From a virus (Duplodnaviria > Caudoviricetes), in IMG/VR virus record IMGVR_UViG_3300021256_000066, positions 65,507-129,506 of that record: 64,000 nt of DNA; one strand, given 5' to 3'. The position numbers and the translations under genes were made by a program. Under the pieces are notes generated by a model. The model was not told where the DNA came from. It searched no databases and saw only the letters and a program-made list of their open reading frames with translations. This document shows positions 4,116-20,449 of the stretch, piece by piece. The first letter of the stretch is position 1; the number at the start of each line of letters is the position of its first letter.

Positions 4116-4445
4116 ATGAAACAGACGACGGAAACAAATTACAAGCATTTCTACACCAAGGGCAACACCGACTACTTCATCACGAAGGAGGGCACGGTGC
4201 TGAGCGCAAGCGACCCTGACAGCGACCCGCAGACGTGGCGCGAGATAGCCACCTATAACGGCAAGGGCTACCGCCGCGTCAGGCTGCAGGGTAAGACGTT
4301 CAAGGTACACCGCCTCGTGGCAGAGGCCTTCGTGCCGAACCCCTACAGCCTGCCAAACGTGCTCCACAAGGACGGCGATCGTGAGAACAATCACTACACC
4401 AACCTGGAGTGGAGCTCACGCCAGAGTAATCATCCACGAGCATGA
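4116..4445 (+). CDS. HNH endonuclease (HNH_3 type)
   Basis: VHRLVAEAFVPNP...VLHKDGDRENNHYTNLEW. Confidence 0.85.
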   Translation: MKQTTETNYKHFYTKGNTDYFITKEGTVLSASDPDSDPQTWREIATYNGKGYRRVRLQGKTFKVHRLVAEAFVPNPYSLPNVLHKDGDRENNHYTNLEWSSRQSNHPRA

Positions 4446-4591
4446 CTGACCGACCGATGATACTGGGGCGGTACAGCCCGAGCCAGAACGGCATAGTGGT
4501 AAGTCCATCGGGGATTGCCCTGTGCCTTGCATGGGGGGGTAACGGGCACGACACCGATAAACCGAAAATACTGATAGAGTATGATATTTAG
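4442..4591 (+). CDS. MTase TRD-like cassette 1 (49 aa; G7 tract 4533-4539; in frame)
   Basis: MTDRPMILGRYSPSQNGIVVSPSGIALCLAWGGNGHDTDKPKILIEYDI; ATGA overlap with the HNH stop. Confidence 0.7.
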   Translation: MTDRPMILGRYSPSQNGIVVSPSGIALCLAWGGNGHDTDKPKILIEYDI

Positions 4592-4769
4592 AGTGACCAA
4601 TACTGCGCAGCCGAAGCCGATACGGGGGGGGCAAATCAGAGCAGTCAACACGACGGGCGACCTGTGTGCCGCCACGCTTACCACGAGATACGATGCCGTC
4701 GGCCCTACGAATATAATTACGCTGGCACACTATCCGATGACCGTAATACTGATAGAGTATGAAATGTAG
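4581..4769 (+). CDS. MTase TRD-like cassette 2 (G8 tract 4624-4631; in frame)
   Basis: ...VNTTGDLCAATLTTRYD...TLAHYPMTVILIEYEM. Confidence 0.72.
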   Translation: MIFRVTNTAQPKPIRGGQIRAVNTTGDLCAATLTTRYDAVGPTNIITLAHYPMTVILIEYEM

Positions 4770-4913
4770 TGGAATAATAAGAATAGGCAACCTCTTCTAC
4801 GACAGTTTCCGCAGTGGATTCGACGGAAACGTTCAGGGCTGTATGGGTGTCACTCAGACGGTCTTGGCTGCCAACGGGGGGGGTATATCTTGGTAGAATA
4901 TGACAACCTATAA
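4759..4913 (+). pseudogene. MTase TRD-like cassette 3, frameshifted at G8 (4876-4883); G9 restores ...QTVLAANGGGYILVEYDNL
   Basis: Manual translation: premature TAG at 4894-4896; the conserved VEY end lies in the shifted frame. Confidence 0.68.
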
Positions 4914-5082
4914 GGCAATCGGCTGGACGCGCAGCGGCAACGGCAGGGGCGATGTGGACCGCTACCACCTCCGCGACATCTCCAACACCATCACCTCGTT
5001 CTGTGGGGGGGGTATTGGGAAGGATTCTGCCACCGGCATGTATAACACCACACCGTATATACTCGTAGAATATGAACTATAA
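4900..5082 (+). CDS. MTase TRD-like cassette 4 (G8 tract 5005-5012; in frame)
   Basis: ...DISNTITSFCGGG...NTTPYILVEYEL. Confidence 0.72.
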   Translation: MTTYKAIGWTRSGNGRGDVDRYHLRDISNTITSFCGGGIGKDSATGMYNTTPYILVEYEL

Positions 5083-5267
5083 CAACTCGCGACTGAACGC
5101 GATGATCATGGGGGGGGCAATGGGAGCCGAACTACCACGGCGAGATGCTCGACACCTACAACCAGCAGGCACACCGCCACACGGCGATCACCATACTGGC
5201 AGGCATATCGTCGCGCAACCACTACTTCGTGTGTGAAGAACGTTTACCATCAAAACTTAGAAAATAT
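5072..5267 (+). pseudogene. MTase TRD-like cassette 5, frameshifted at G8 (5110-5117); G7 fuses it in frame to the MTase core
   Basis: MNYNNSRLNAMIMGG / QWEPNYHGEMLDTYNQ...AITILAGISSRNHYFVCEE continues into the core ORF; current frame stops at 5234-5236. Confidence 0.68.
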
Positions 5268-6740
5268 ATGATTGCAAAAATTTATCCTGACGGGCACCCT
5301 GACTTGCAGGGAAAGAAAGACCCTACGCACCCAGTGCGCTATTTCGACATCCGAAAACTCACTCCACGCGAGTGCTATTCACTGATGGGCGTGCCGCCGC
5401 AGCAGATCGACACGCTGATGAAAACCGAAAAGAGACCATATATGGCATGGGTGGGCGTAGATGCCGAACTGGCTGTGTTTGGACTGGAGCCGAGTGCCAC
5501 GCGCCGCGAGGTGGATGAAGCATATCGCGAGGCTATCGAGAGCCTGAATAACCAGGCAGCTGACGATGCAGACGCACAGGAAGAAACCGACGAAGATACC
5601 GCACGGCTGATGGCAGAGAAGCCCGAAGACAATGCCGAGGAAACCGCGCTGATGCGACAGAACTACGAGATGAACTATCAGCGCATCATCGCTGCCAGTC
5701 AGGAGCAGCGTTACGGTGACGTGCAGATTATTGCCAACTCATCGCATTACAAGCTGGCGGGTAACTCCATCGTCTGCGACGTACTGATGTATATCTACGA
5801 GGAATTGCTCTACCCCACGTACCGCCGACTGCCGCAGGAGCAGACCGACCTATTCGCCCAGCCACAGTTCCGCTTGACCCGAGACTGGAAGAAAGAGCCG
5901 CTGAAGTTGGTAACACTTTGCAGCGGTTACGACAGTCAGGCAATCGCTATGGATATGCTGCAACAGCGATATCCGGACTTCCGATGGGAACTGAAGGCAT
6001 GGAGCGAGTTCGACCCCGAGAGCAGCCGACCATTGGAAGAGCAGCCCGCCATAGTGGCCCATAATCTGCTGTTCCCACAATACAAGGATTTGAACCGGGG
6101 CGACATGACCAAGGCTGATTGGAGCGACCTCGCCGATGCAGGTATCGACCTGCTGACATATAGCACTCCGTGTCAGTCCATCTCACAGGCTGGCAAGCGA
6201 GAGGGTATCAAGAAAGGTAGTGGCACTCGCAGTGCCGTACTTTGGAGTACCGAAGAAGCTGTTCGCCAGATGCGACCGAAGGTGCTGCTGCAGGAGAACG
6301 TGCGGGCGCTTATCAACAGCGTGAACATGCCCGACTTCAAGGAGTGGTGCAGTCTGCTGGAGAGCCACGGCTACGTGAACTTCCTCGCGCCCTCGTTCCC
6401 GACGGTCTGGGGCACCGACAAGCGCGACAAGAAGACCGTGCCGGGCATCCTGAACGCCAAGCACTACGGCGTGCCACAGAACCGCGAAAGGGTGTATATG
6501 GTCTCCGTGCGTGCCGACATGCTCGGCGGCACGCAGTACGAGTTTCCACGTCCTTTCCCGCTCGACAAGTGCATCGCCGACGTGCTGGAGGACAATGTGG
6601 ACGAGCGCTTCTTCCTAAAGCCCGACTCGGTGATCAAGTTCCTCACCGTCAACGAACAGACCGACGGCAGCGACATACACTATATGGTAACGGACCACAA
6701 ACTGAGTGATGAGGAAATCAGACGTGCAAGAGGTGAATAG
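5268..6740 (+). CDS. DNA (cytosine-5) methyltransferase catalytic core, circularly permuted (IX-X-I...VIII), no internal TRD
   Basis: IRKLTPRECYSLMG (IX) and KLAGNSIV (X) precede TLCSGYDSQ (I), YSTPCQSISQAG (IV), QENV (VI) and HYGVPQNRERVY (VIII). Confidence 0.92.
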   Translation: MIAKIYPDGHPDLQGKKDPTHPVRYFDIRKLTPRECYSLMGVPPQQIDTLMKTEKRPYMAWVGVDAELAVFGLEPSATRREVDEAYREAIESLNNQAADDADAQEETDEDTARLMAEKPEDNAEETALMRQNYEMNYQRIIAASQEQRYGDVQIIANSSHYKLAGNSIVCDVLMYIYEELLYPTYRRLPQEQTDLFAQPQFRLTRDWKKEPLKLVTLCSGYDSQAIAMDMLQQRYPDFRWELKAWSEFDPESSRPLEEQPAIVAHNLLFPQYKDLNRGDMTKADWSDLADAGIDLLTYSTPCQSISQAGKREGIKKGSGTRSAVLWSTEEAVRQMRPKVLLQENVRALINSVNMPDFKEWCSLLESHGYVNFLAPSFPTVWGTDKRDKKTVPGILNAKHYGVPQNRERVYMVSVRADMLGGTQYEFPRPFPLDKCIADVLEDNVDERFFLKPDSVIKFLTVNEQTDGSDIHYMVTDHKLSDEEIRRARGE

Positions 6741-6872
6741 GGGGGGCAAATCGGCGGTTGCTACTGGAAACAGAAGGACGGCTATGTGCGCCGTCCGCTC
6801 TGGGGACTGTCCCGCACGCTGAAAGGCGATGGCAATCATCCTGCAGGAATAATCATTGAGTATGAATTATGA
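6733..6872 (+). pseudogene. MTase TRD-like cassette 6; G7 tract (6740-6746) out of frame with GTG 6733, but body is in frame with the core across its TAG
   Basis: GGQIGGCYWKQKDGYVRRPLWGLSRTLKGDGNHPAGIIIEYEL. Confidence 0.62.
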
Positions 6873-7003
6873 AACAGACACCGAGAGCGTGCATCTACTA
6901 CAACTTGTCGCTGATGTATAACGACGGCATGAAGTGGGACTTGGTGGCCAAGACGGTCATCGGCGACACGCATCCACAAGCGCTATTGATAGAGTATGAG
7001 TAG
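6869..7003 (+). CDS. MTase TRD-like cassette 7 (44 aa; no homopolymer)
   Basis: MKQTPRACIYYNLSLMYNDGMKWDLVAKTVIGDTHPQALLIEYE. Confidence 0.65.
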   Translation: MKQTPRACIYYNLSLMYNDGMKWDLVAKTVIGDTHPQALLIEYE

Positions 7004-7196
7004 CATTACCCCCCCCATATTGCGGCAAGTCCCTGTTCGGCGAGTGCGGACGGAGTGGGCAAAAGCCGTCAGGCGGCAGACTGGTACCAACCCTTTTCAG
7101 GCCAAGCAACTGGAGGAGTTTGTGTCGGACTACATGCCTACCATCACCGCCAGCGCAAACATCGAGAACTATATCAAAGTAGAATATGAAATATAG
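6996..7196 (+). CDS. MTase TRD-like cassette 8 (C8 tract 7009-7016; in frame)
   Basis: ...RVRTEWAKAVRR...MPTITASANIENYIKVEYEI. Confidence 0.7.
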   Translation: MSSITPPILRQVPVRRVRTEWAKAVRRQTGTNPFQAKQLEEFVSDYMPTITASANIENYIKVEYEI

Positions 7197-7358
7197 AATA
7201 CAGACAACAAGCACCATGCCGATATACGAAGGCCACCTGGTAAAACCCGGATGGCACCACAAGGCTTGTGAGGTGCTGAATGTGGGGGGGTATCGACATG
7301 TATTCACACCCAGAGCAACAATCTGCTTCAAAAAATCATCATAGAGTATGAGTTATGA
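7186..7358 (+). pseudogene. MTase TRD-like cassette 9, frameshifted at G7 (7284-7290); G8 restores ...NVGGVSTCIHTQSNNLLQKIIIEYEL
   Basis: Manual translation; current frame stops at TAG 7342-7344 inside the junction motif. Confidence 0.68.
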
Positions 7359-7518
7359 AACCAATTAGTTATAAACTTGGAGTCCACATCGTAGGTCATC
7401 GCCTGGAGTGGAAAGGTGGGGGGGTATTGAGAGTAATATGTGGAAGAACATCTGCCCTTGCATCCGTATGAACGATTACAAATGTCCAATGAATTGTCTG
7501 ATAGAGTATGACGATTAA
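7355..7518 (+). pseudogene. MTase TRD-like cassette 10, frameshifted at G7 (7418-7424); G8 restores ...ICPCIRMNDYKCPMNCLIEYDD
   Basis: Manual translation. Confidence 0.66.
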
Positions 7519-7656
7519 GACGCGATATATCAACTGCAACTGCGACAATACGGTCAAGTCGATACTGGCCGGATGTTACAAGTTCGGTGCTGCCACTCTG
7601 CTTAGGGGGGGCAAGCCAGTATGACATCGGTATTGTTTGAATATGAATACGATTAA
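7508..7656 (+). pseudogene. MTase TRD-like cassette 11, frameshifted at G7 (7605-7611); G8 restores ...KSILAGCYKFGAATLLRGGQASMTSVLFEYEYD
   Basis: Manual translation; current frame stops at TGA 7622-7624. Confidence 0.66.
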
Positions 7657-7843
7657 ACTGCGACAGACCACATCGGCCACGGCCAAGCCTATACGGGGGG
7701 GGTACTTCCTGCCCGTCAACACAGCATCAGGAGGTGTCGCTTGCACGCTCAACACCCGCTACGACGGCATGCAGCTGCCAGAAGACATCCTCACGCTGGC
7801 CCATTACCCCAAGACCGTCGTGCTCAGAGAGTATCATTTATGA
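7643..7843 (+). CDS. MTase TRD-like cassette 12 (G8 tract 7695-7702; in frame); paralogue of cassette 2
   Basis: KPIRGG...VNTASGGVACTLNTRYD...ILTLAHYPKTVVLREYHL. Confidence 0.72.
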   Translation: MNTIKLRQTTSATAKPIRGGYFLPVNTASGGVACTLNTRYDGMQLPEDILTLAHYPKTVVLREYHL

Positions 7844-7955
7844 AGGACGAATCAACAGCAGTCAGGACGGCATCGTCATCAGCGCCCGAGGCATTGCCCT
7901 CACCCATACCGCTGGTCACGGCAATTGCCCGAAGATATTGATAGAATATGAGTGA
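7833..7955 (+). pseudogene. MTase TRD-like cassette 13; ATC at the position where other cassettes have ATG; paralogue of cassette 1
   Basis: (I)IYEGRINSSQDGIVISARGIALTHTAGHGNCPKILIEYE. Confidence 0.6.
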
Positions 7956-8202
7956 AGCGAAACGATACAGCACAGCAGGTCGCCCGTTCCTTGAAATCGC
8001 CACGAGGGGGGGGCAGACCGTACTGCGAATCCGACAAGCCACCGAACAGGGCTATATCGAGTGCGACCCGCAGGGTGTCTGCGACCTTGCCTACCCGGAG
8101 AGCGAACTGCGCCGTGCCCGTGTCAAGGACCGAGGCCGCGTCTGCGGAACGCTGATGAGCGACAATCAGCAGTTCTGCGTCTTCATCGAACATGACATAT
8201 AG
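7948..8202 (+). CDS. MTase TRD-like cassette 14 (G8 tract 8006-8013; in frame)
   Basis: IRQATEQGYIEC..GVCDLAYPESELRRARV...VCGTL; resembles, from recall, variable-region segments of phage C5-MTases. Confidence 0.75.
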   Translation: MSEAKRYSTAGRPFLEIATRGGQTVLRIRQATEQGYIECDPQGVCDLAYPESELRRARVKDRGRVCGTLMSDNQQFCVFIEHDI

Positions 8203-9969: not shown

Positions 9970-10734
9970 ATGAAACAGAACGAGAGAGAGGGGCAGACTT
10001 TGCTACCGGAGAACTATCACTACTACAAGGTGCTGGCCGAATCAGCCACGGGCAAACGGCTGATGGCGCTGCTGCACGCCTGCAAGAAGTGCGAACAGGC
10101 CGCCGACGACTGGTGCAAGAAGTTCGGGGCGAAGTATTACTGCGACGATCCGAACTACTTTGCGGGGGGCGTGGCGTGCGTGGCTTTCGACGGCAAGCCC
10201 GACCCGAAGCTGTGGCGGGAATACACGACGGTGGAGGGTGAGCAGTATTACCTGCCGGCCTGCGAGGCGGTGGCCGACAGGGTGGAGATACCTCACAGGG
10301 ACTATGCTCTGCACGACACTTGGGACACGATGTATCTGCGCAACCAGATACGGGAGGTCACGGAGAAGGGCGACGACGGCACGGATGTGAAGCGGCTCTA
10401 CGTGGCACGGCTGTCGTTCCGGCCTGCTGGCAATCAGACAGACTCGCACGGAAGGCCTGTCCAGGCCGGACGGGCACTGCGGCGGGCTATCGGGGCCGAA
10501 CAGAAGCGGCTGCGCCTGCCGGTGGTGACAGTTCAGCAGGTCTATCAGGCCTTCGGGGCCGTGGTGCCCGACGGACGGCTCACTCCGCGCACACCCATCG
10601 TGTTCCTCTGGGGAGCATCCATCTACATCGGCTCTGCCTACCCCTGCGAGGCGAAGGGACTGACGGAGATCACGATGCAGCAGTGCCGCACCGCCGCCTG
10701 CAAGTTCGAGCGAGAGGACGGACGGGGGAGTTAG
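9970..10734 (+). CDS. Hypothetical protein
   Basis: 254-aa ORF converging on the integrase gene. Confidence 0.7.
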   Translation: MKQNEREGQTLLPENYHYYKVLAESATGKRLMALLHACKKCEQAADDWCKKFGAKYYCDDPNYFAGGVACVAFDGKPDPKLWREYTTVEGEQYYLPACEAVADRVEIPHRDYALHDTWDTMYLRNQIREVTEKGDDGTDVKRLYVARLSFRPAGNQTDSHGRPVQAGRALRRAIGAEQKRLRLPVVTVQQVYQAFGAVVPDGRLTPRTPIVFLWGASIYIGSAYPCEAKGLTEITMQQCRTAACKFEREDGRGS

Positions 10735-11927
10735 GTCTTGGCGGCAGCGTCGGTGTCGAACACGCGGTCGAGCAGACGGAAATTATTGTCGTTGATCACC
10801 GAGAAATCTTTCTGAATATAGATATCAGCCACGTCGTAACTGCCGACGTGGTTGAGTGCTTCATCGACATCGCCTTTCGAGAAGTGCATCAGGTTGCGCG
10901 AGAGCGTGGCGAAGGTATGCCGTGCCTGGTAGAACTGCAGGCCGTCGATTCCAACCGCCTCGCCGACGGTTTTCAGTCCGAGGTTCAGTGCCTTGTTGAA
11001 CGTCGATTCGTCGCGGTAGCGCTCGTGGAACGAGAAGACGCGACTGCTGCCCCGATAGCGCTTGATGAGCTTGGCGATGACGGGGTGGATGCGCACCTCG
11101 ATATAGGCATCGTCCTGACGGCGGTCGCGGGTCTTTATGCGGTTATACTTTAACACACCACCCGTCAGCGTCCGTGCCTCGTACATATCCACGGAGTTCA
11201 TACCCATCAGACAGAACGAAAGCACAAAGCAGTCGCGGGCCAGTTGCGGTCGGCTGTGCGCCTTGCCCTTGTAGCGATAGATGGCGAGCAACTGTTCCAG
11301 CGTGAGCGCACGGACACCCTTCTTCATCGGCTGTCGCGGCACACGGAAGCGCAGGAATGGGTCGTTCTGGATAGGCTGGTCGTAGTCGGTATTGTAGCGT
11401 CGCATGGCCTCGCGGTAGAGGTGGCGCATCTGTCCGAGGTAGAGCGACGCGGCACGGGGCTTGTCGTGCATCGTCTGCGCAAAGCTGTCGAGCAGGGGGT
11501 AGGTGATCTGCGCGAACGGCAGCGACCGCCGACCGAGGTGCTCCTCCAGTCGGTTCAGCATCGTGCGGTAGTTCTTGGCGCCCTTGATGTCGTGGCGCCG
11601 CAGCCATTCGTCGGTAAACGTGAAGAAGTCGAGCACCTGCTCTCCCTGTGTCAGTCGGGCGGCAATCTCCTGAGCGTCCATCGTCGCCGTGCCAAGCGAC
11701 TCCAGTTGCAGTGCGTCGAGCCGTTCCTGCAACTCGCGTCGCTTCTGTTCAATCATCTTCGCCTTCTCCGGCTCACGGATGCGCTTGCCGTTGGTAGTCA
11801 GTTCCGAGTCGGTGGCGGTGACACCCGTCGGGATGCGCTTCTTCGTCCGGCCTTCGCACACCAGGAACGACACCGGGTGCAGCCGTTTCTTATTCTTCTT
11901 GCCAATCTCAATCGTAATTGTTGCCAT
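10731..11927 (-). CDS. int: Tyrosine integrase (Bacteroidales type; arm-binding, SAM-like and catalytic domains)
   Basis: FCLMGMNSVD, YNRIKT, FYQARHTFATL, ALNH...ADIYI. Confidence 0.92.
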   Translation of the reverse strand: MATITIEIGKKNKKRLHPVSFLVCEGRTKKRIPTGVTATDSELTTNGKRIREPEKAKMIEQKRRELQERLDALQLESLGTATMDAQEIAARLTQGEQVLDFFTFTDEWLRRHDIKGAKNYRTMLNRLEEHLGRRSLPFAQITYPLLDSFAQTMHDKPRAASLYLGQMRHLYREAMRRYNTDYDQPIQNDPFLRFRVPRQPMKKGVRALTLEQLLAIYRYKGKAHSRPQLARDCFVLSFCLMGMNSVDMYEARTLTGGVLKYNRIKTRDRRQDDAYIEVRIHPVIAKLIKRYRGSSRVFSFHERYRDESTFNKALNLGLKTVGEAVGIDGLQFYQARHTFATLSRNLMHFSKGDVDEALNHVGSYDVADIYIQKDFSVINDNNFRLLDRVFDTDAAAKT

Positions 11928-19212: not shown

Positions 19213-19617
19213 ATGGCAAAGAAAAAGAACCAGAAGACATCGACAGAGATGCTGCAGGAGATGGCCGACGACTTCGGCAGGATGGCGGAAGACATGAAAG
19301 CGCTGATGGAGGGCTATATCGGACCGACACAGCAGGAGTACATCGACAAGATCAATGCCGACTGGAACGGCTATAACTTCATCGTCGTCTTCGGTCACGT
19401 GTACCGTCTGACCAACGAGAAGAAATACAAGGAGAACGGCTCGCTGCGCTGCCCCTGCGAGGTGTGCGAACTGAACGGCAGTTGCTGTCAGGACTCCGAC
19501 AAGACGCTCTGCGGCATCCTTCGTGCTGATACCGACGAGTATTTCTACGATGCAGGCGAGCTGGTCATCGACAAGCGCGGCAAGATGAAGGTTAAAAAAT
19601 GGTATGGTGATAAATAA
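19213..19617 (+). CDS. Hypothetical Cys-rich protein
   Basis: 134-aa ORF. Confidence 0.65.
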   Translation: MAKKKNQKTSTEMLQEMADDFGRMAEDMKALMEGYIGPTQQEYIDKINADWNGYNFIVVFGHVYRLTNEKKYKENGSLRCPCEVCELNGSCCQDSDKTLCGILRADTDEYFYDAGELVIDKRGKMKVKKWYGDK

Positions 19618-19629
19618 AGACTAAGATAT

Positions 19630-19840
19630 ATGGCAAAGAAAGTATTTCTCGGAAATGGACTAAGCCGCACGGCGATGGTGTTCAAGATTGCGACGCTGGC
19701 AGGACATAAGCTGACAGTGCCTGAAATGAACCGCATCAAAGATATCAACCCCCGCGCCCTGGAGCGAGTCTATGACTCCGTATTGGGGGGGGGTAAGTAA
19801 GGGCGACGCGCTGTTTGCACTCAGACTTGTATTGAAATAA
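19630..19840 (+). CDS. Small protein with G9 tract; stops at 19800 as written, G8 would extend it to 19840
   Basis: MAKKVFLGNG...YDSVLGGGK* versus ...VLGGVSKGDALFALRLVLK*. Confidence 0.5.
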
Positions 19841-19861: not shown

Positions 19862-20449
19862 ATGGAAGAAGACATAAGACCGGAAGATTATGGCTACGAT
19901 AGTGAGGCCATTGCTGAACAGGCACGGGAGATTCTGAAGCACAACAGGCCCTATCAGAAAATCTACGAGCAACTGGAGCGACTCGATCCACGAACTGACT
20001 TCGTGAAGCGCAACTACCTGTTGACACAGGCTCGGCTGATGGAAGAAAATGAAATCAAGCGGCTGATGGATCTCACTAACAAGCGCCGTCAGGACGTGCG
20101 TCGCATCGGTGACTATCTGGAGCAACACAACCCCGAGGACAGCGAGAAATATGAGACGTTGATGGCTGGCTTTGCCTTCCTGCTCGACATGATAGATTTC
20201 ACGCTCCACGACATCAACGAAATCCTCTTCCGCAACAAGACCGACATCAAGATGGAGAACTTTCCCGAAATCGTGAAGTGCCGCAAGTTGGCAGAGGAAA
20301 TGGCAGGTAATGACATCCAGAAGATGCCCGAATGGCAGCGCAATATGTGGATGTATGAGAGCGACCGTCTGTTCAATTACCTCAAGACGCGTTCTGCAGA
20401 TTATCTCCGACGGGCCGAGCGGGAAGAGAAGAAACGTATCAAAAAGTAG
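19862..20449 (+). CDS. Hypothetical protein
   Basis: 195-aa ORF. Confidence 0.7.
   Translation: MEEDIRPEDYGYDSEAIAEQAREILKHNRPYQKIYEQLERLDPRTDFVKRNYLLTQARLMEENEIKRLMDLTNKRRQDVRRIGDYLEQHNPEDSEKYETLMAGFAFLLDMIDFTLHDINEILFRNKTDIKMENFPEIVKCRKLAEEMAGNDIQKMPEWQRNMWMYESDRLFNYLKTRSADYLRRAEREEKKRIKK

Follow-up and report, generated by a model that had tools for sequence, protein, structure and literature searches.

How does a single cytosine methyltransferase of a rumen phage work when 14 miniature genes, most of them carrying a run of G or C, are strung out on both sides of it? We considered this question for a locus in the final 64 kb (64,000 nucleotides; hereafter the window) of the 129.5-kb IMG/VR virus record IMGVR_UViG_3300021256_000066. 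The locus spans positions 4442-8202, lies entirely on the + strand and consists of one C5-cytosine methyltransferase (C5-MTase) and 14 flanking mini-open reading frames (mini-ORFs), which we call cassettes (c1 to c14); 5 of these precede motifs IX-X of the methyltransferase core and 9 follow its motif VIII. We consider it likely that the locus encodes a multispecific phage C5-MTase built from separate parts, in which free target-recognition domain (TRD) subunits are combined with heritable switching at the homopolymer tracts. A more detailed version of this reading, towards which we lean with somewhat less assurance, holds that free, exchangeable TRD peptides of 40-85 amino acids (aa) act as the specificity subunits of the C5-MTase, each gated by a tract, with a three-way switch at c12/c13 and junctions that carry stops in three frames, giving a combinatorial 'phasotype' with thousands of states.

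The core ORF matched the Pfam DNA_methylase profile PF00145 with E 1.3e-37 (130 bits, cut-off 22), in two stretches, residues 313-515 corresponding to profile positions 42-230. Its motifs follow the order IX (RKLTPRE), X (GNSIV), I (LCSGYDS), IV (TPCQ), VI (ENV) and VIII (QNRER), and all six are invariant across 12 relatives (12-sequence alignment A1). Ahead of motif IX the ORF has a TRD-like start (TAITIL ... HYFVCEE) and a conserved Met at 5268 (MIAKIYPDG), and after motif VIII the beginning of the variable region is followed by a TAG stop. By its profile match and its full set of catalytic motifs the core is a C5-cytosine DNA methyltransferase, and with IX-X located N-terminal to motif I it is circularly permuted in the manner of M.BssHII, both chain ends falling in the variable region. 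An acidic insertion of ~110 aa lies between motifs IX and X (window ~5420-5720, core residues ~95-200); it holds a conserved FGLEPSAT..EV.EAY stretch and is missing from an AT-rich clade of relatives (L011-L014). The features of the locus are as follows.

4442..4591, + strand: cassette 1, 49 aa, G7 at 4533-4539, in frame (ON); matches a TRD position in P0052
4581..4769, + strand: cassette 2, 62 aa, G8 at 4624-4631, in frame (ON)
4759..4913, + strand: cassette 3, G8 at 4876-4883, OFF; one G more restores the YILVEYDNL end
4900..5082, + strand: cassette 4, 60 aa, NTITSF, G8 at 5005-5012, in frame (ON)
5072..5267, + strand: cassette 5, TRD running into the core without a stop; G8 at 5110-5117 puts ATG 5072 out of frame
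5145..6740, + strand: core C5-cytosine methyltransferase, circularly permuted (531-codon ORF, PF00145, motif order)
6709..6872, + strand: cassette 6, G7 at 6740-6746, OFF, one G short; matches the last TRD of P0111
6869..7003, + strand: cassette 7, 44 aa, no tract, in frame (always on)
6996..7196, + strand: cassette 8, 66 aa, PTITAS, C8 at 7009-7016, in frame (ON)
7186..7358, + strand: cassette 9, G7 at 7284-7290, OFF, one G short
7355..7518, + strand: cassette 10, G7 at 7418-7424, OFF, one G short; DYKCP-type TRD
7508..7656, + strand: cassette 11, G7 at 7605-7611, OFF, one G short; the L006 version is in frame with G8
7643..7843, + strand: cassette 12, 66 aa, CTLNTRY, G8 at 7695-7702, in frame (ON)
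7833..7955, + strand: cassette 13, TRD without a start codon and without a tract of its own
7948..8202, + strand: cassette 14, 84 aa, G8 at 8006-8013, in frame (ON); final cassette

An earlier note, made from the letters of this stretch alone, had described 5 upstream and 9 downstream mini-ORFs chained by overlapping start and stop codons, and our re-reading of the sequence agreed with that layout. Thirteen of the 14 cassettes ended in a hydrophobic-(I/V/F)-E-(Y/H)-(E/D/H) motif, close to the (I/V)EY(E/D)-like ending named in that note, with a stop 0-2 codons further on, and at 12 junctions in the window the next ATG was carried by GA(G/A)TATGA or by GAACATGA. Across the loci, the Tyr/His codon of the junction ended in T, making the ATG, at 208 of the 211 junctions followed by a cassette, as compared with a share of 45% for TAT among Tyr codons genome-wide; at array ends, and directly before cores without a TRD, TAC or CAC was found and no ATG. 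This codon choice indicates that the junction start codons are under selection, which argues that each cassette is separately translated. Stops in both other frames were present at 146 of 199 junctions, TAG arising from ATA-GAG and TGA from TATGA in addition to the cassette's own stop, and ATA made up 65% of junction Ile codons versus 25% genome-wide. With stops in all three frames, a ribosome in the wrong frame would still terminate beside the next ATG, as in c3 and c9 here (the out-of-frame reading of c9 ends at a TAG within the junction motif), and the polar effects of broken cassettes would in this way be limited.

Two schemes for joining the pieces into longer chains were rejected. Readthrough or recoding of TAG that would join the core to c6 conflicts with the mixed use of TAA, TAG and TGA stops and with the conserved upstream ATG that c6 has of its own, and no tRNA genes were found in the 64-kb window. 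A polyprotein made by a +1 frameshift at every junction would need a TAT-to-ATG shift that allows no tRNA re-pairing, and the ATGs behave as starts.

The identity of the cassettes was clearest for c14, which was scored against a library of 1.84 billion protein representatives (E ≤ 1e-3) and gave 373 representative matches, with E down to 1e-12 at PF00145 TRD positions. About half of the best matches were small stand-alone proteins of this type (70-117 aa), and the rest had lengths of 200-860 aa; 9 of the 10 long matches that were scanned were PF00145 enzymes. In full-length enzymes the c14 match lay between motifs VIII and IX (residues 295-347 of 472 in P0031, 220-274 of 333 in P0028). The long matches are single-chain multi-TRD enzymes, with three tandem TRDs in P0031, five in P0011 and about eight in P0111. 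Local searches of a small database placed c13 on P0060 (E 4.6e-14), c11 on residues 108-142 of P0101 (3e-9) and c10 on residues 189-223 of P0111 (6e-5), while c1, c3, c4, c5 and c6 matched other TRD positions of the same multi-TRD proteins at 1e-4 to 5e-3; as this database is small, only c13 and c14 would stay significant at library scale. The paralogue pairs proposed earlier were recovered as well, c2/c12 being 53% identical (E 9e-19) and c1/c13 52% identical (E 1.5e-8). Having several TRD homologues, the locus probably belongs with the multispecific C5-MTases, and the homology of the cassettes to TRDs asserted in the earlier note was upheld by the library match of c14 and by the matches of the others to the same multi-TRD proteins. 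For c2, c7, c8, c9 and c12, a TRD nature is suggested by shared ends, position and paralogy. A PDB sequence search with c1, c2 and c4 returned nothing significant, and a word-indexed protein search for longer proteins containing c12 found none. P0111 itself (541 aa) begins inside motif VIII and continues through its approximately eight tandem TRDs to IX and X; it may be a fragment, or else the beta-type subunit of a C5-MTase that is split and highly multispecific.

Whether such a peptide could bind the core was addressed by complex prediction, with the core taken from Met 5268 (alignment A1) and combined with c14 (alignment A2) in three runs, next to 3 controls. Core plus c14 gave an interaction prediction score from aligned errors (ipSAE) of 0.85, 0.82 and 0.85, and the best control 0.00; in a calibration that is rough only, our own alignments having been used, the mark was reached by 58 of 80 solved complexes and by 2 of 110 mismatched pairs. 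The runs had at least 84% of contacts in common, with a partner predicted local distance difference test (pLDDT) score of at least 78. In the model, core residues 24-31 (RYFDIRKL, just before motif IX) pair with the C-terminal strand 77-80 (CVFI) of c14, core residues 403-407 (PQNRE, motif VIII) contact c14 residues 65-68, adjoining T68-L69, and the N-terminal part of c14, including the tract-encoded RGG, lies on the C-terminal tail of the core. The predicted contact geometry is that of a canonical C5-MTase, and the model supports binding of c14 to the core. Single-chain C5-MTases have already been solved, so this docking result may be a remembered likeness. An AlphaFold2 model of the fused form of L028 (A3) was too poor to be used (mean pLDDT 60.7, with TRD residues 1-94 below 50).

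A search with the core retrieved 16 IMG/VR loci, one contig binned with a rumen Prevotellaceae metagenome-assembled genome and 55 metagenome contigs, mostly from rumen. About 70 related rumen and gut phage contigs share this arrangement of mini-ORFs, endings included, even where core identity falls to 55%. A blastn comparison of the locus with the phage GenBank collection gave no match, and an exact-flank pattern for the c2 tract found no other contig in IMG/VR. Cores that begin right at MIAKIY, without a TRD, occur in L002, L004, L005, L009 and L010, whereas the cores of the AT-rich clade (L011-L014, L054-L064) have an in-frame fusion with a c4-type TRD. L022 has a TRD of yet another type fused. 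Position varies too: c3- and c4-type cassettes are upstream here and downstream in L007, and a c2-type cassette is downstream in L006. Selection on the starts, fusion and fission with the core, and indifference to position argue together for separate translation and for action in trans. The earlier proposal that TRDs are supplied in trans thus finds support, from comparison as well as modeling, in the TRD-less cores, the side-changing cassettes, start selection and the predicted docking of c14. Its description of the core as TRD-less fits the five loci whose core begins at MIAKIY; it does not strictly hold in the window, where c5 would be fused to the core at G7.

One could argue instead that the cassettes are silent donors, with activity confined to a TRD fused in cis and with recombination at the junctions swapping cassettes. 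This idea would fit the variety of TRD types found fused to the core from one lineage to the next, the direct repeat of 11-26 nt at every junction and the integrase gene 2.5 kb downstream. Silent sequences, however, should not have their ATGs kept by selection at synonymous sites, and in several lineages the core is without any fused TRD. The cassettes all face the same direction and no inverted repeats were found at the locus, so that recombination would delete cassettes rather than exchange them, and no such exchange was seen in any high-identity contig pair. We therefore regard silent donors as quite improbable. A shufflon or inversion system was rejected because inverted repeats are absent.

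The second half of the question concerns the tracts. In the window, G7 runs are located at 4533, 6740, 7284, 7418 and 7605, G8 runs at 4624, 4876, 5005, 5110, 7695 and 8006, and a C8 run at 7009. The reading frame is kept in c1 (G7), in c2, c4, c12 and c14 (G8), in c8 (C8) and in c7, which has no run; it is broken exactly at the run in c3, c6, c9, c10 and c11, where one G more repairs it, and in c5, where one G less does so. Accordingly, the count given in the earlier note (a G7-8 or C8 run in 12 of 14 cassettes, six in frame and six broken at the run) was reproduced. Eleven of the 12 G runs of at least 7 in the window and its sole C8 fall in the locus, which covers 5.9% of the window; if runs were evenly spread, the chance of finding 11 of 12 there would be ~1e-13. 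Elsewhere in the 64-kb window there was one G run of at least 7 (G9 at 19785) and no further C run of at least 7. GGG provides 12% of the Gly codons in the long ORFs of the phage, and GGG-GGG 2 of 123 Gly-Gly pairs; this low usage elsewhere argues that the tracts are not a by-product of composition. The outlying G9 (19785-19793) lies between the ORFs at 19213-19617 and 19862-20449 and could be a promoter or leader tract.

To measure length variation we compared homopolymer sites with identical 12-nt flanks in at least two contigs, binned by longest length, with the following outcome.

G/C, 9 or more: 21 of 22 sites vary
G/C, 8: 35 of 43 sites vary
G/C, 7: 1 of 10 sites vary
G/C, 6 or less: 2 of 239 sites vary
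A/T, 7-9: 6 of 14 sites vary
A/T, 4-6: 5 of 772 sites vary

Thus 56 of 65 G/C runs of at least 8 differed between contigs with identical flanks, versus 2 of 239 runs of 6 or less, in line with the earlier expectation that tract lengths would vary among relatives, and lengths at single sites ranged from 6 to 12. Contig pairs from different metagenomes locate the differences in the same way. L028 and L029 had 0 substitutions in 2,882 bp and differed solely by 1 G in 2 of 8 tracts; L007 and L050 had 0 substitutions in 4,651 bp and differed solely at 3 of 8 tracts, by 1-2 G. Between L032 and L037, 7 of 9 indels were inside tracts, as were 7 of 12 between L007 and L008 (96.6% identity), where three orthologous cassettes swap between in-frame and broken states. 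The c3 orthologue, for instance, has G9 in L008, where its frame is intact, and G8 in L007, where the frame is lost. Over all loci, 61 of the 195 tract-bearing cassettes were in frame, 124 were repairable exactly at the tract and 10 were otherwise broken, while the tract-less cassettes comprised 11 intact and 4 other. The cassettes thus have two marks of phase-variable genes, a frame-setting repeat inside the ORF (124 of 134 broken cassettes are repairable at the tract) and tracts that are polymorphic between near-identical genomes.

A simpler explanation would be that the frameshifts are homopolymer errors of sequencing or assembly, and that all cassettes are on, forming a constitutive multi-subunit multispecific methylase. 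Homopolymers are indeed error-prone, A/T runs of 7-9 vary as well, and there is a bias toward one base short. Against this, a broken share of 124 among 195 tract-bearing cassettes is far beyond short-read consensus error, differences of up to 6 bases occur at one site, and the codon bias that creates the tracts would be left needing an explanation. Furthermore, the assemblies L018 and L019 have an identical core and are 100% identical to the present locus over 9.6 kb, and the tract lengths are the same in all three assemblies, one of which is a SPAdes-style contig with 98x coverage; the three probably derive from the same sample and are therefore not independent with respect to tract stability. 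Long-read homopolymer error, which the earlier note had allowed for, is an unlikely source of the frameshifts given the agreement of the 98x contig, and sequencing or assembly error in general seems to us very improbable.

Could the broken cassettes simply be dead? Under such a view the mini-ORFs would be the decaying, mostly non-functional remains of a single-chain multispecific methylase, for which one may point to the single-chain relatives with up to ~8 tandem TRDs (P0111) and to the two thirds of tract-bearing cassettes that are out of frame. Pooled Nei-Gojobori ratios of nonsynonymous to synonymous substitution (dN/dS), from pairs that are not independent, were 0.18 for ON-ON, 0.15 for ON-OFF and 0.16 for OFF-OFF comparisons. 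The value of ~0.16 for broken cassettes is close to that of intact ones, which argues that they are not pseudogenes. Decay also predicts neither that breaks occur at tracts only, nor that junction stops and starts are kept down to 55% core identity, nor that the mini-ORFs remain intact in the AT-rich clade, which has almost no tracts (L011-L014, L054-L064). We give decay hardly any credence.

The same equality of purifying selection on broken and intact cassettes can be turned to another use, namely that the tracts are expression dials at which slippage of RNA polymerase or the ribosome yields some in-frame product from broken cassettes, differences in DNA length then being of minor consequence. 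The finding that 95 of 124 broken cassettes are exactly one G short likewise points in this direction. A programmed slippage site would be expected to be fixed in length, however, and the DNA tracts differ between otherwise identical genomes, from 6 to 12 per site; in general, moreover, G runs are not known to work well as -1 frameshift heptamers. As the sole role of the tracts, expression dials appear rather unlikely to us, and decoding by slippage can coexist with heritable switching.

If heritable switching is indeed what the tracts provide, two of them would do more than turn one cassette on or off. Cassette 5 forms the N-terminal TRD within the core ORF, and G7 in its tract would give a continuous TRD-IX-X-I..VIII chain; an in-frame, 555-aa fused form with a c5-type TRD is present in L024, L028 and L036. 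At the other end of the array, the c13 type lacks a start codon in all 7 distinct loci that carry it, and its frame has neither a stop nor a Met over the 86-129 codons that reach back to the c12 G tract (7 of 7 distinct loci). From this arrangement the c12 tract appears to pick among three states, with G8 giving c12, G7 giving c13 (which would be translated starting at the ATG of c12) and G9 neither. The earlier proposal of independent switching gains support from the hypervariable tracts, but its figure of 2^12 states oversimplifies, since a single tract serves both c12 and c13. In many relatives a C7-C10 tract is also present within core motif IX (RKLTPPE; L007 5218, L008 4048, L006 5250 and others), and where the flanks are identical, contigs have 8, 9 or 10 C in it; in these relatives it may serve as a master switch that turns the whole enzyme on or off. 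The core of the window has no C tract in motif IX. Other orthologues differ in detail: c8 has no C tract in L002, and the ATG of c6 (6709), which lies within the 3' end of the core in a different frame, shows the same overlap in L014.

Of the conditions that the earlier note named as refuting its idea, those examined here, namely TRD homology, tract lengths in relatives and long-read error, did not refute it. Several observations weigh against a set of free, switchable TRD subunits. Free TRD subunits have no experimental precedent in C5-MTases, as far as our literature search went; the docking model covers c14 alone among the cassettes; and c2, c7, c8, c9 and c12 had no significant match to single-chain TRDs in the local search. 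Broken tracts are skewed, 95 needing one more G and 29 one fewer. This one-G-short bias fits a tendency of the tracts to contract, but it would equally fit lengths that are systematically under-called, or slippage during decoding. The ON share of 33% equals the random-frame value and alone gives no sign of selection for switching. Finally, switching within one population, and its rate, are read from differences between consensus contigs.

With these points taken into account, the assembly of the enzyme from separate parts could proceed as follows. One permuted core (IX-X-I..VIII) would be made together with TRDs that are each a separate mini-gene of 40-85 aa, translated serially by termination and re-initiation at the (I/V)EY(E/D) junction that holds the next ATG. 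A free TRD would then dock on the core, its C-terminal strand pairing with the strand before motif IX, its T-L loop resting on motif VIII and its N-terminal part on the C-terminal tail of the core, and each TRD-core pair would methylate its own motif. G7-G10 or C8-C10 tracts at Gly-Gly or Pro-Pro codons would slip during replication, as the comparison of contigs suggests, and switch single TRDs on or off, heritably but reversibly. The c5 tract would choose between a fused TRD-core chain and a free core, the c12 tract between c12, c13 or neither, and the motif IX C tract in relatives would act on the enzyme as a whole. A population of phages could in this way hedge protection from restriction against exposure to methylation-dependent restriction, and in a lysogen variable tracts could vary the methylome of the host.

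Each ingredient of such a system is known singly: multispecific, permuted and two-chain C5-MTases, repeat-driven phase variation of methylases, and poly-G loci in phages. The multispecific C5-MTases of Bacillus phages include M.SPRI, M.Phi3TI, M.Rho11sI and M.H2I. Like the enzymes of the M.SPRI type and like P0031, P0011 and P0111, the locus has several short TRDs per core, each expected to provide one specificity. In those enzymes, though, the TRDs form one chain, between VIII and IX, in canonical order and without tracts, whereas in the present locus every TRD is encoded separately, a G or C tract is found in most of the TRD genes, and the motif order of the core is permuted. Phase-variable methyltransferases of bacteria include Type III mod and Type I hsdM/hsdS (phasevarions) and hsdS shufflons. 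The shared features are that repeat slippage switches methylation and that alternative specificity modules serve one catalytic unit, and free TRD peptides may be likened to the use of HsdS by Type I enzymes. The bacterial systems modify N6-adenine and have one switch per enzyme or rely on recombination, in contrast to up to a dozen tracts on separate 5-methylcytosine specificity modules in a phage.

Two-chain C5-MTases are represented by M.AquI alpha/beta and M.EcoHK31I. Artificial fragment complementation across the variable region has likewise been reported for M.SssI (PMC3404938; PMC5944983). M.AquI, M.EcoHK31I and split M.SssI are active enzymes assembled non-covalently from pieces cut in the variable region, and the present enzyme, with its cuts in that region, would be assembled in a similar way. 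In these three, however, both pieces carry catalytic motifs and the TRD is attached to IX-X, while here the cuts fall both before and after the TRD, leaving what would be a specificity-only subunit. Natural circularly permuted C5-MTases comprise M.BssHII, M.Alw26I, M2.Eco31I, M.Esp3I and M2.BsaI (PMC5944983). As in that group, motifs I-VIII follow IX-X and both termini fall in the variable region; a fused c5 plus core would have the TRD-IX-X-I..VIII order of Type H (PMC5944983). The M.BssHII group has one TRD in cis, unlike the many cores here that lack a TRD and have free mini-genes on both sides. Among phage contingency loci, poly-G tracts in the receptor-binding proteins of Campylobacter Fletchervirus are described in PMC12823448, which cites Sorensen et al. 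2021, and repeats in T2/T4 are reported in a preprint that also mentions a poly-G tract in the BPP-1 methylase gene (bioRxiv 10.1101/2025.10.21.683753). The likeness lies in hypermutable homopolymers in phage genes and in bet-hedging; the known loci are single tracts in tail or other genes, and none is a tract-gated array of methylase specificities. In a literature search, no paper turned up that describes TRD-only subunits or TRD genes arrayed with gating tracts; the earlier note likewise knew of no described system with this layout.

To our knowledge, the structure by which one core serves several TRDs in multispecific C5-MTases has never been resolved. If the reading given here is true, naturally detachable TRD peptides make this multi-TRD structural question directly testable and offer a plug-in route to cytosine methylases of chosen specificity. 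It would also be the most elaborate viral contingency-locus system yet seen, with about a dozen switches placed on DNA modification and not on host recognition, by which one phage enzyme could write many switchable methylation patterns. Such a system would suggest that, in the Bacteroidota of rumen and gut, restriction of the methylation-sensitive and the methylation-dependent kind are both part of an arms race.

Outside the window, two tandem N6/N4 DNA methylase genes (PF01555) are located at G000:C1:22613-24196 (L076 1114-2697). Both are cut at profile position ~181 of 221, exactly at a G7 (23422) and a G10 (24187), in the GG-VLD-GSGTT region, and a radical-SAM-like ORF just upstream of the pair is broken near its 3' end by a C11 (22613). 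Judging from these breaks, the other modification genes of the phage seem to carry the same kind of tract switch. A tyrosine integrase gene is found at 10731-11927 on the - strand of the window, 2.5 kb downstream of the array (PHROG 1, E 2e-20). With an integrase gene this near, the phage may be temperate, in which case methylation of the lysogen genome would be possible. Gene callers miss or split the cassettes, and the three assemblies of this phage are annotated differently. One further gene adjoins the array on its upstream side.

4116..4445, + strand: HNH endonuclease gene (Pfam HNH_3, E 1.5e-9), listed as context

Its stop codon overlaps the ATG of c1, an instance of translational coupling; the gene may serve in homing or packaging or belong to the system itself. 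A homologue in L010 (3997-4284) is positioned between two cassettes.

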